The translations under genes were made by a program, and so were the position numbers. From Candidatus Borrarchaeum weybense (GTDB lineage Archaea; Asgardarchaeota; Sifarchaeia; Borrarchaeales; Borrarchaeaceae): a DNA stretch of 64,000 nucleotides. Below are positions 18,199-51,935 of this stretch, in pieces. The DNA lies in the NCBI GenBank assembly GCA_019057385.1, contig JAHQJS010000006.1, forward strand, positions 224,001-288,000, given 5' to 3'. The stretch's first letter is position 1. Each line of letters begins with the position of its first letter. Below the pieces are notes generated by a model, which was given only the letters and a program-made list of their open reading frames with translations, was not told the origin of the DNA and ran no database searches.

Positions 18199-19935
18199 TT
18201 AAGCAGTTTTGATTTTAGCCACTTCTTCAAGCCCCAATTCTTTGGTATATTGCTCGCGCATTATGTATTTTTGGACTTTCCCCGTCACGGTCATAGGAAA
18301 TAAGTCAACGAACTTGATGTATTTGGGTATTTTGAAGTAAGCGATTTCGCCCTTACAGAACTCACGAATTTCTTCTGCTGTGGCGGACTTCCCTTCCTTT
18401 AATTGTATCCAAGCGGCTACTTCTTCCCCAAATTTCTCACTAGGAACTCCTATAACTTGGACATCTTTGATGGCAGGATGGCGGTACAGAAATTCTTCTA
18501 ATTCGCGTGGATAAATGTTTTCACCCCCACGAATAATCATATCGGTCAATCTACCTGTGATATTGCAGTAGCCTTGCTCATTCATTGCTGCAATGTCACC
18601 TGTGTGAATCCAGCCTATCTCATCTATGGCGTTATTAGTAGCTTCTGGGCTTTTATAATAGCCATGACGCATCACAAGATAACCTCTGGTGCAAAGTTCA
18701 CCTGGAGTTCCCACAGGAACTATCTTGCCTGTTTCTGAGTTAATGATTTTTACTTCAACATGAGGCAAAGGTTTGCCAACTGTTTCTGTCCTTAATTCTA
18801 ATGAATCATAGGGTGTAGTCTGGGTAATGACTGGGGAAGTTTCTGTTTGTCCATACGCTATCGTGATTTCATTGGCGTTCATTAAATTGTTTACTTTCTT
18901 CATAACTTCAACAGGACAAGGCGATCCAGCCATAATTCCTGTTCGTAAAGTAGAGAAATCATATTTGCTGAAGTCTGGATATGAAAGTAAAGCGATCCAC
19001 ATAGTCGGAACACCATGACAAGCTGTCGCCTTCTCTTCTTGGATGCAATCTAAGACTTCTATGGGATTAAATGACTCCCCAGGGATGAGCATTGTTGCGC
19101 CGTGACTGACACATACGAGATTGCCTAGAACCATGCCGAAACAGTGGTAAAAAGGTACAGGGATACAAAGTCTATCCTGATCAGTGAATTTCATTGCTCT
19201 GGCGATAAAATAACCGTTATTGAGAATATTGTGATGCGAAAGTGTAACCCCCTTTGGAAATCCTGTCGTTCCACTCGTATATTGAATATTTATAGGATCA
19301 TCAAACTCTAAACTCTCTTCCCTATTTGCAAGTTCTTCATCAGAAATTTCATCGCCCATTGCCATTAACTCGTCCCATGTAAGCATTCCTGGTAGTTTTT
19401 CCTTTCCGATAAATATCGCAGTTTTTAAGAAGGGAAATTCTTTTGATTTAATGTCGCCAGGAGCATCAGTTTTTGCCTCTGGGCAGACCTCATAGAACAT
19501 TTCCACATATTTTGAAGTTTTAAATTCTCGAATAAGCAATAAGGTTTGTGTTTCAGATTGTTTCAATGCAAATCGAAGTTCACGAGGCCTATAGGCTGGA
19601 TTGATGTTCACGAGGATGGCACCAATCAATGCGGTAGCAAATTGTGTTATTACCCACTGGGAATTGTTTGTGGACCAGATCGCCACACGATCGCCCTTCT
19701 GAACGCCTAATTTCATAAAGCCCTTTGCTGCTTGGCGACAAACCTCGTAAAATTCTTTGTAAGTATATCTTAGGATTTCACCACTGGCGTCTCGTTCATG
19801 TCTGCATACGAGGGCATCATTATTTGGATATTTCCCAGTTATTTCGGCGAGAAATTCTCCAATAGTTTTTCCAATCAATCCAGTATCTGAACATTCAGAA
19901 TAATAACTCATGGTTAACTTCTCTTTTTCTAACAT
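18199..19935 (-). CDS. AMP-forming acyl-CoA synthetase (ACSF2/YngI-like)
   Basis: NIQYTSGTTGFPKG, YHCFG, AYGQTETSP, HTGD, IIRGGENIYP and TVTGKVQK. Confidence 0.92.
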   Translation of the reverse strand: MLEKEKLTMSYYSECSDTGLIGKTIGEFLAEITGKYPNNDALVCRHERDASGEILRYTYKEFYEVCRQAAKGFMKLGVQKGDRVAIWSTNNSQWVITQFATALIGAILVNINPAYRPRELRFALKQSETQTLLLIREFKTSKYVEMFYEVCPEAKTDAPGDIKSKEFPFLKTAIFIGKEKLPGMLTWDELMAMGDEISDEELANREESLEFDDPINIQYTSGTTGFPKGVTLSHHNILNNGYFIARAMKFTDQDRLCIPVPFYHCFGMVLGNLVCVSHGATMLIPGESFNPIEVLDCIQEEKATACHGVPTMWIALLSYPDFSKYDFSTLRTGIMAGSPCPVEVMKKVNNLMNANEITIAYGQTETSPVITQTTPYDSLELRTETVGKPLPHVEVKIINSETGKIVPVGTPGELCTRGYLVMRHGYYKSPEATNNAIDEIGWIHTGDIAAMNEQGYCNITGRLTDMIIRGGENIYPRELEEFLYRHPAIKDVQVIGVPSEKFGEEVAAWIQLKEGKSATAEEIREFCKGEIAYFKIPKYIKFVDLFPMTVTGKVQKYIMREQYTKELGLEEVAKIKTA

Positions 19936-29516: not shown

Positions 29517-30801
29517 AGAATCACCTCAAGAATATTCACTATGAAGTGGGGATAGGAATTGTGTTCTAAGCGAAATTCGGGTTAAGATCGTACAATCTTC
29601 TTTTTTAGCGTTTTGCGTTAGACGTTTTCCGGTTTTTAGACAATGCAGGCTTAAACGATTTTTTAGATTACCACCGATATAACACAACCCTAAGGTTTTA
29701 TGAGTTACGAGTGTTCCTTTTTTCAGCCCAAGTGATAGCGTACCACCATATCTTCTTTTTATGCCCCCTTTCGCGAATTGAAAACGATGTAACTGTCTCC
29801 TGTGAAATTGTAGCGGTGTTATATAGTAAATACTTATTGTGGTCGGAAATTTTGCTCTGGTTGTAGCGGCTGCCAGTACCCAGGCATCTACACAATGAGT
29901 TTCAAAGATAGGTTGTGATTTGCTCTTCTTTTTGTGCAATCCAAAGTGTTGTCTTAACTGCTGTGTCTCGTTCCCTTGTGCTAGTATCACATTTAATTTA
30001 AGTTTTTGTAACTCGCTATAGAAATACCACTTGCCCACTTCTAATGGGCTAAAATTAGTGTTCCATCTCTTATGATGTCTCTTTTTTGTAACTGCTTGAA
30101 TATCCTCTACCACCACGTTTTGGATAGGAATGATAGTGCAGAGTTGTTTGATGATCCTTAGTTTTACATCCCATCGTGCTCTGGTGGATGGTGGTAACCT
30201 ACGTTGATTTGCTATTCGGTTTTTCTTGTTTTTTCTACGGCGAGTATTCCTTTTTCGGCGTGCCTTCCGCGCATTTCGTCTTTGTTCGACCTTTCTTTTC
30301 ACCCAAGTTATCGCTTCTGACATGATATTGACTACCGTATCACCTGTACCAACGATTGAGAACCCTTCGTACTTCGTACCTGGATCTACTCCAATGGCGA
30401 GCGGTTGTGTGACGGGTATGTGTGGATCGAATTGTAAATGAAGATAAAAGATGCCTATTTTATTCCGTTTCTTGATGGCCTTTCCTTGAGCAATGAGTTT
30501 TCGAGCTTTTGCAGGTCGACACGGCATTAATGGAGTGCCATTTTTACTAACGACAGGTATTCTACCGATTGCGGTCTCCCTGTCAGAGTCATGTTTCCCT
30601 TCGCCAGGGTATATAGGACATAGTCTAGTACTATTGTTGCTAGACTTGGAATTAAGTGATTCTTCCGAAGCGGGCTGGACTAGGGAGGCATCCAACCATT
30701 CTTGTAGTCCTATACACGTAGTTCCCGAAGAACTGAGGCTAGTCAACTCTTGCGTTGGTATCACCATCCCATGCCCTGTCCTCTTGGACAGGGTAGCTGA
30801 C
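29517..30801 (-). mobile_element. IS200/IS605-family non-autonomous OMEGA element (omegaRNA + IsrB, no TnpA)
   Basis: One end begins GTCAGCTACCCTGTCC-AAGA-GGACAGGG (hairpin). The other end, CAATTCC...ATTCTTGAGGTGATTCT, abuts ATGAA (TAM-like). Confidence 0.85.
29526..30569 (-). CDS. isrB: IsrB (RRXRR/PLMP-domain RNA-guided RuvC nickase, no HNH)
   Basis: GTPLMPCRPAKAR, RuvC-I GVDPG, Arg-rich bridge helix, LPPS, RuvC-II VVEDI and RuvC-III HCVDA; no HNH; core about 347 aa. Start uncertain (ATC after GGGAGA; the frame is open to 30815). Confidence 0.85.
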   Translation of the reverse strand: MGRIPVVSKNGTPLMPCRPAKARKLIAQGKAIKKRNKIGIFYLHLQFDPHIPVTQPLAIGVDPGTKYEGFSIVGTGDTVVNIMSEAITWVKRKVEQRRNARKARRKRNTRRRKNKKNRIANQRRLPPSTRARWDVKLRIIKQLCTIIPIQNVVVEDIQAVTKKRHHKRWNTNFSPLEVGKWYFYSELQKLKLNVILAQGNETQQLRQHFGLHKKKSKSQPIFETHCVDAWVLAAATTRAKFPTTISIYYITPLQFHRRQLHRFQFAKGGIKRRYGGTLSLGLKKGTLVTHKTLGLCYIGGNLKNRLSLHCLKTGKRLTQNAKKEDCTILTRISLRTQFLSPLHSEYS

Positions 30802-51679: not shown

Positions 51680-51935
51680 TGGTGCTCCGGCCGGGATTTT
51701 CAGGGTAGACAGACGTCAAGTCCCATTCGAACCCGGGTTTTGGGCGTGCTGTAATCAATGATATTTGATGAATACACGGTTCCCCCGATTGATCGGTTGA
51801 TCGAATGTCCAGGGGTTTCTCCCAATTCTGCACAGAGTACAAAGAAGAGTCGAGAGCCCCAGATGCTTTCGACTTAGAATTTGTTTATTTAGAACCGTTT
51901 ATGCCTTCTAAATGGCCGGACTACACCACCGGAGC
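51680..51935 (-). tRNA. tRNA-Glu(CTC) with encoded CCA, interrupted by multiple BHB introns
   Basis: Exons 51935-51913, 51867-51851, 51816-51809, 51738-51726 and 51696-51680 splice to a 78-nt cloverleaf GCTCCGGTGGTGTAGTCCGGCCAAGCATCTGGGGCTCTCGACCCCTGGACCCGGGTTCGAATCCCGGCCGGAGCACCA. Confidence 0.9.

Follow-up and report, generated by a model that had tools for sequence, protein, structure and literature searches.

The minus strand of the window (the whole 64,000-nucleotide stretch of DNA that was analysed) carries, at 51935-51680, a 256-nt tRNA-Glu(CTC) gene whose exons are separated by inserts at four sites: 20/21, 37/38, 45/46 and 59/60. We consider it probable that this is a functional Borrarchaeum gene with five introns, in which introns 1, 2 and 5 each occupy a site of their own and the site 45/46 holds two abutting introns, A and B, B being removed first. 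The features of the locus are collected in Table 1.

Gene structure, spliced product and conservation

Read on the minus strand, the sequence has at 51935 a 5' end typical of an archaeal tRNA-Glu; its other end consists of the 3' acceptor strand that matches it, A73 and CCA. The four inserts (51912-51868, 45 nt; 51850-51817, 34 nt; 51808-51739, 70 nt; 51725-51697, 29 nt) total 178 nt, i.e. 69.5% of the 256 nt, and the exons total 78 nt, CCA included. This confirms the initial annotation of the locus as a tRNA-Glu(CTC) gene that is about 70% intron. Its coordinates and lengths are all correct on the minus strand (78+178=256), and the helices that it quoted are all present (CGGC/GTCG, CTCT/GGAG, CCCT/GGGG, GGGG/CCCA with one mismatch, and TTCG/TGAA). 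A published list of intron positions in archaea includes all four insertion sites.

Table 1. Features of the tRNA-Glu(CTC) gene and its upstream region, in window coordinates. H, central helix; h, exon-side helix; the cut within a bulge is marked by ^.
Feature	Start	End	Strand	Description
Whole tRNA-Glu(CTC) gene	51680	51935	-	CCA genomically encoded at 51682-51680
TTATTTAAAGCAT-like A/T box	51995	52007	-	~65 nt upstream of the mature 5' end
Exon 1	51913	51935	-	tRNA positions 1-20b: acceptor 5' strand, D-stem 5' strand, most of D-loop
Intron 1	51868	51912	-	45 nt, D-loop 20/21; H CGGC/GTCG, 4/4; h' TTAGAA/TTCTAA, 6 bp
Exon 2	51851	51867	-	positions 21-37, anticodon CTC inside; invariant in 7 orthologs
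Intron 2	51817	51850	-	34 nt, canonical 37/38; H CTCT/GGAG; bulges CG^A, AA^A; h = anticodon stem
Exon 3	51809	51816	-	positions 38-45; invariant in 7 orthologs
Intron A (putative)	51780	51808	-	29 nt, 45/46; H = exon 40-43 CCCT with GGGG, 4/4; bulges GG^A, AA^N
Intron B (putative)	51739	51779	-	41 nt, adjoins A; H = A's GGGG with CCCA, 3/4, conserved G.A
Nested 23-nt intron of the initial annotation	51748	51770	-	inside B; drawable in the window's genome, not conserved
Exon 4	51726	51738	-	positions 46-59; invariant in 7 orthologs
Intron 5	51697	51725	-	29 nt, T-loop 59/60; strict hBHBh'; H TTCG/TGAA; bulges AA^T, AA^T
Exon 5	51680	51696	-	positions 60-76: T-stem 3' strand, acceptor 3' strand, A73, CCA; invariant in 7 orthologs

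Removal of the inserts in silico restores a cloverleaf: the 78-nt product is called tRNA-Glu(ctc) by ARAGORN, and its length and identity agree with those of an intron-less tRNA-Glu(TTC) paralog of the same genome (G000:C5:330579-330656). The paralog is also 78 nt long, shares 73/78 positions with the spliced product and differs from it at the anticodon, 26/27, 44 and 49; all 23 nt of exon 1 match its start. Apart from a one-base A/A ambiguity, the comparison determines how much is taken out at every site, with exactly 70 nt for 45/46. The variable loop left by precise removal is 4 nt long, as in the paralog. The mature model contains the U27.U43 mismatch that had already been pointed out, and all orthologs keep it.

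The unspliced gene is missed by standard finders, as had been expected of it. ARAGORN, with or without its intron mode, called nothing on the 256 nt, and the Rfam tRNA model (RF00005) gave no match at its gathering score, at E<=0.001 genome-wide or at E<=10 on a 401-nt stretch. With four inserts, the locus thus belongs with the heavily interrupted Asgard tRNA genes, i.e. those that have at least two inserts and are missed by finders. BLAST with the whole precursor found no second tRNA-Glu(CTC)-like sequence elsewhere in the genome; the locus is therefore the only candidate decoder specific for GAG codons. GAG decoding would then require five introns to be excised accurately, two of them in a set order. 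In a crude list of gene spans in this genome, about 30 tRNA-like candidates measure 75-201 nt, followed by the Glu(CTC) gene at 256 nt and by one of 470 nt. The latter (G000:C6:872128-872597, plus strand), which has a large insertion, is the only candidate longer than the Glu(CTC) gene.

Orthologs were collected by a pattern scan of metagenome contigs, which gave seven further copies in addition to those of the window's genome (G000) and of Ca. Borrarchaeum yapensis (G004, same genus). Merged, these copies amount to seven distinct sequences, which fall into three groups or more and are 80-99% identical; the Ca. B. yapensis copy is 96% identical over its full length. The locus was not found in the other three genomes of the genus, which are 69-77% complete. 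All orthologs keep the four insertion sites with near-identical intron lengths (34, 29 and 41 nt exactly), and the 80%-identical clade retains all five units. Comparison of the orthologous loci, a check that the initial annotation had proposed, gave 0/78 variable columns in the exons against 60/178 in the introns (Fisher p about 1e-11), and all central-helix strands are invariant. The variable columns include intron edges, at pre-tRNA positions 86, 157, 197, 211 and 239. The first nucleotide varies in introns 2, B and 5 and the last one in B and 5, so that the boundaries are fixed independently of any motif. The A/T box lies at an equal distance in 7/7 orthologs, including L035, despite the divergence of the rest of its upstream sequence, and is a candidate archaeal TATA element. 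Searches with each intron against the genome (blastn-short) returned only chance-level matches of 11-14 nt, and the genome thus bears no sign of recent intron copying. Two short metagenome contigs (L034 and L030, JABAOF.../JABAOC...) share 90 identical nucleotides upstream of the gene, are about 80% identical in the gene body and differ in their downstream flanks, a pattern which suggests either chimeric assembly or recombination at the tRNA gene.

Perfect conservation of the exons next to introns that differ at a third of their columns speaks against a decaying pseudogene. We regard as highly improbable both this reading and its variant, in which the mature RNA would retain the 45/46 insert as an extra arm of excessive length. 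Neither the helices nor the positions of the bulges vary, the variable loop that remains after precise removal has 4 nt as in the Glu(TTC) paralog, and BLAST showed no other Glu(CTC) candidate in the genome. The U27.U43 mismatch of the mature model could be read as a sign of decay, but its presence in all orthologs shows that it is not a random lesion. What such a reading retains in its favour is the invisibility of the gene to standard tRNA finders and the conservation of intron A, which is unusually high for an intron (4/29 columns variable).

The motifs were read with one geometry: a central helix strand, then a 3-nt bulge, with the cut after bulge nucleotide 2. Introns 1, 2 and 5 have full, conserved motifs of this kind, in agreement with the single bulge-helix-bulge (BHB) introns that had been proposed at D-loop 20/21, at 37/38 and at T-loop 59/60. 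Each has a 4/4 central helix, fully paired and invariant in the seven sequences, together with an outer helix of 3-7 bp. Intron 1 essentially lacks an exon-side helix (HBh' type), and 14 of its 45 columns are variable. In Ca. B. yapensis, T88>G and T111>G turn the imperfect h' of intron 2 into a perfect 7-bp helix. For intron 5, h is the T-stem (5 bp) and h' is GGG/CCC, and both end nucleotides of the intron differ between orthologs. Introns are also present at the D-loop and 59/60 sites in tRNA-Glu genes of other Asgard lineages.

The 70-nt insert at position 45/46

The outer ends of the 70-nt insert form 0/4 central pairs and thus no BHB, and the one-base A/A shift is of no help; a single BHB was therefore rejected. 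The initial annotation had split the insert into two tandem introns sharing a GGGG strand, a division that pairing, covariation and shuffles all support. The resulting units, A and B, are relaxed forms of the BHB motif, with central helices of 4/4 and 3/4 respectively; the shared GGGG lies at 51785-51782 and the CCCA of B at 51744-51741. A contains a hairpin with a GATC/GATC core; its h' is limited to 1 bp, followed by the interrupted hairpin. B has a 5' bulge AA^C and an h' of 5-8 bp stacked directly on H. This h' is 95% paired in the orthologs, with one G-C to A-U compensatory change and two wobble-preserving changes.

Relaxed BHB motifs are common by chance. A loose BHB scan of the 256 nt gave many spurious candidates, and conservation, covariation and shuffles were relied on instead. 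When the 70-nt insert was shuffled 20,000 times, a two-unit solution of equal quality appeared in 0/20,000 cases. An alternative register for A, with cuts at 128/129 and 154/155 and H CCTG/CGGG, was discarded: it gives a better hairpin, yet it leaves a 7-nt variable loop and is incompatible with the motif of B.

Four genomes of another Asgard family with small genomes (L005-L008) contain a free-standing intron of 19-20 nt at the 45/46 site of tRNA-Glu(CTC), with H CCCT/GGGG and a 78-nt product as in the present gene. Unit A therefore has a stand-alone counterpart. These genes differ from ours in that the single 45/46 intron has nothing attached on its 3' side, that an intron at 34/35 replaces the one at 37/38, and that the D- and T-loops contain none. 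Searches of 400 genomes of the phylum, of metagenome contigs and of species-representative genomes turned up no relative that has A and lacks B.

A simpler reading treats the 70 nt as one intron, and the gene as having four in total: the broad-specificity (alpha-beta)2 endonuclease would cut the two outer sites separately, as single bulge-helix(-loop) motifs, with neither a cut in the middle nor an obligatory intermediate. A motif-free count does give four intervening sequences, and cleavage of relaxed HBh'/hBH motifs has been reported for (alpha-beta)2 EndA with a Crenarchaea-type loop. The local minimum free energy (MFE) fold of the diverged orthologs combines, at the 5' site, a helix of 6 bp, a bulge of 3 nt and a hairpin (HBh'), with no second bulge; moreover A and B both lack an exon-side helix, their h being only 0-1 bp. 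Against this, both outer sites need the same GGGG partner strand and cannot be presented simultaneously, and the best-defined cleavage site of the insert is precisely the middle one, where the AA^C bulge places 3 nt between two helices. The edge nucleotides of B (157 and 197) vary while GGGGGAA, in the middle of the insert, and GCCCAA persist as invariant islands in variable surroundings. The A-type intron found alone at 45/46 in L005-L008 also points away from a single 70-nt unit. We therefore judge the one-intron reading rather unlikely.

In our estimation the chances are about even that the insert is a conserved compound intron in the full sense, i.e. that abutting BHB introns share a four-base strand, that only the downstream-first order is productive and that the wrong order strands the tRNA. 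This dependence of one motif on the presence of another follows from sequence logic only. In silico, removing A first leaves B with 0/4 central pairs, whereas removing B first leaves A at 4/4. The 5' helix strand of B, GGGG, lies inside A, and B before A would thus be the productive order. The ordered splicing that the initial annotation had envisaged is supported to this extent.

The same annotation had counted five to six introns, the sixth being a nested intron of 23 nt within B. Five are retained here. The strict hBHBh' described for the nested one (CG, TGTA/TACA, bulges TTC and GCA, ATCAA/TTGAT) does exist in the sequence and can be drawn in the window's genome and in L034, but it does not behave as a conserved intron. 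The motif is broken in 5/7 orthologs; its central helix (160-163/183-186) is 68% paired, its helices 68-69%, and the pair T160-A186 is present in 2/7. A continuous stem that competes with it is 95% paired and shows the G-C to A-U compensatory change. The substitutions found in the other species of the genus lengthen this stem: A186>T gives a pair A163-T186, and T168>A with A177>G shifts the register of the apical hairpin. The diverged clade has a continuous stem of 8 bp and no bulge-helix-bulge at the nested site, and the MFE folds of both the window's genome and Ca. B. yapensis use the continuous stem. The nested motif is probably fortuitous. A six-intron pathway, in which the 23-nt intron (51770-51748) would leave first, then the 18-nt remainder of B and then A, accordingly appears improbable to us; a cut within an intron would be harmless, yet the nested excision is unnecessary for a mature tRNA.

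Splicing enzymes and proposed order of maturation

The genome encodes both a splicing endonuclease and an RNA ligase. Two genes, at G000:C4:663429-664055 (plus strand) and G000:C5:195817-196488 (minus strand), have an EndA domain (PF01974), one of them being an alpha subunit with the catalytic Tyr/His/Lys and the other beta-like, without the His. The best PDB match of the alpha subunit is that of Aeropyrum pernix (3p1z_B, E 6e-42), and the alignment spans the region of the Crenarchaea-type loop. The ligase is RtcB. According to published work, Asgard archaea have an (alpha-beta)2 EndA with an L1 loop conferring broad specificity. A catalytic alpha subunit, a non-catalytic beta-like one and the alignment over the loop region are in keeping with the relaxed endonuclease that the initial annotation had supposed.

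We propose that a precursor of about 256 nt is transcribed and matured by the archaeal protein-only pathway, in which EndA would cut at bulge-helix-bulge motifs and RtcB would ligate. Introns 1, 2 and 5 would each be spliced from their own motif. B would be excised while A is still present, GGGG being paired with CCCA at the 3' end of B; GGGG would then re-pair with exon CCCT (40-43), allowing the removal of A. Excision of A first would be a dead end, B being left with 0/4 central pairs. A ends and B begins at one phosphodiester (pre-tRNA 156/157, window 51780/51779), which would serve as 3' cut for the former and as 5' cut for the latter, so that three cuts with a single ligation would be sufficient for the whole insert. 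The motif of A also competes with the anticodon stem, which is the outer helix of intron 2, so that the precursor would need at least two conformers.

Predicted energies were set aside as a guide to splicing order. The restricted-structure energies of the A and B motifs are only about 1.4 kcal/mol apart, and the local MFE folds favour a slipped 7-bp helix (121-127/148-154) that leaves both BHB bulges unexposed. A sequence joining 51698 to 51913 with 36 letters between was considered as a spliced form and rejected, as it corresponds to the Glu(TTC) paralog on shared exons. Among the sequencing runs listed with the locus none was of RNA, and the two that were compared, contig sets of unknown kind, contain the genomic form and the paralog only.

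Relation to other interrupted tRNA genes

Heavily interrupted tRNA genes in Borrarchaeaceae, and nested introns with ordered removal, are already known, and the Glu(CTC) gene is an extreme example of them. Introns are reported in 92-95% of the tRNA genes of three Asgard genomes (Valentin-Alvarado et al. 2024, PMC11291895). A preprint (Goswami et al. 2026, 10.64898/2026.10.13.758758) describes Asgard tRNA genes with as many as five intervening sequences and gives, for a single Borrarchaeaceae lineage, a figure of 2.12 per gene, of which tRNAscan-SE misses half. The maximum of five outdates the benchmark to which the initial annotation had compared the gene, namely the Thermoproteales with about three introns. 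Both surveys (PMC11291895; 10.64898/2026.10.13.758758) report, as we do, BHB-type introns at the D-arm, 37/38, the variable region and the T-arm, often missed by annotation. In their counts each contiguous insert figures as one, and neither adjoining introns nor the order of splicing is taken up. In the Glu(CTC) gene, one of the four inserts appears to be compound, which would raise the number of splice units to five, and it is detailed here with its orthologs.

Soma et al. 2013 (PMC3728597) cite as known archaeal tRNA introns that are nested and can be processed only in order. The nested pre-tRNAs of Thermoproteales and other Crenarchaeota (Sugahara et al. 2007, 2008, as relayed in PMC3728597 and PMC4090602) use sites such as 20/21, 45/46 and 59/60, like the present gene. 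As summarised by Soma et al. 2013 (PMC3728597) and Yoshihisa 2014 (PMC4090602), these genes have up to three introns, against five proposed here, and an (alpha-beta)2 EndA is common to both groups. The host of the Glu(CTC) gene is an Asgard archaeon. The dependency would also be the opposite of theirs: here the inner or downstream intron borrows a strand from its neighbour and would be stranded if the neighbour left first. The eukaryote studied by Soma et al. 2013 (PMC3728597) likewise combines BHB introns of the D-loop, 37/38 and T-loop in one gene. No gene there has more than three; the introns fold independently of one another and are explicitly described as not nested, and their order of removal was shown experimentally and correlates with motif stability.

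What is added to the known picture is a worked-out compound intron, a modest addition that creates no new category. The gene supplies a worked example of a phenomenon described in 2024-2026 and leaves the general picture unchanged. Being compact and well conserved, it makes a test substrate for the tolerance of Asgard (alpha-beta)2 EndA towards relaxed motifs, and it also suits two other questions, namely enforced splicing order and the annotation of long inserts without an outer-end motif. If the compound layout is general, it would explain the lack of a canonical outer BHB in many variable-region inserts of motif-free Asgard censuses, and tRNA splicing that is ordered and switches conformers could be tested directly in the closest prokaryotic relatives of eukaryotes.

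Several other observations concern tRNA genes. In a genome of the same class and another family (L055, G005:C228), tRNA-Glu(TTC) has a D-loop intron of about 30 nt and a T-arm intron of about 45 nt, and its 3' end reads ATCA, not ACCA; the Glu(TTC) counterpart in the window's genome is intron-less. Contigs from Nanoarchaeota and Woesearchaeota MAGs (L044, L045, L047) carry tRNA-Glu genes of 183-230 nt with exon ends as in Asgard, which indicates that very heavy interruption of tRNA-Glu also occurs in DPANN archaea. The 179-kb contig G000:C1 contains clusters of compact intron-less tRNA genes (e.g. C1:107-253, 19436-19895, 74513-74748 and 161784-161928), unlike the rest of the genome, whose tRNA genes are intron-rich. 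A second RtcB match is also found there, in two separate stretches (G000:C1:13917-15008). This contig may represent contamination (the genome is scored 7% contaminated), a mobile element or a virus.

Within the window, a weak match to the C/D-box RNA sR35 at 51761-51833 (plus strand, antisense to the tRNA gene) was dismissed as probably due to chance, its 18 bits standing against a gathering score of 60 (E 0.027 in a 401-nt search). HEARO RNAs are guide-RNA-like elements associated with IS605-family/HNH genes, and one of them (RF02033) is matched at 30588-30801 on the minus strand with 83.2 bits, just over the gathering score of 83.
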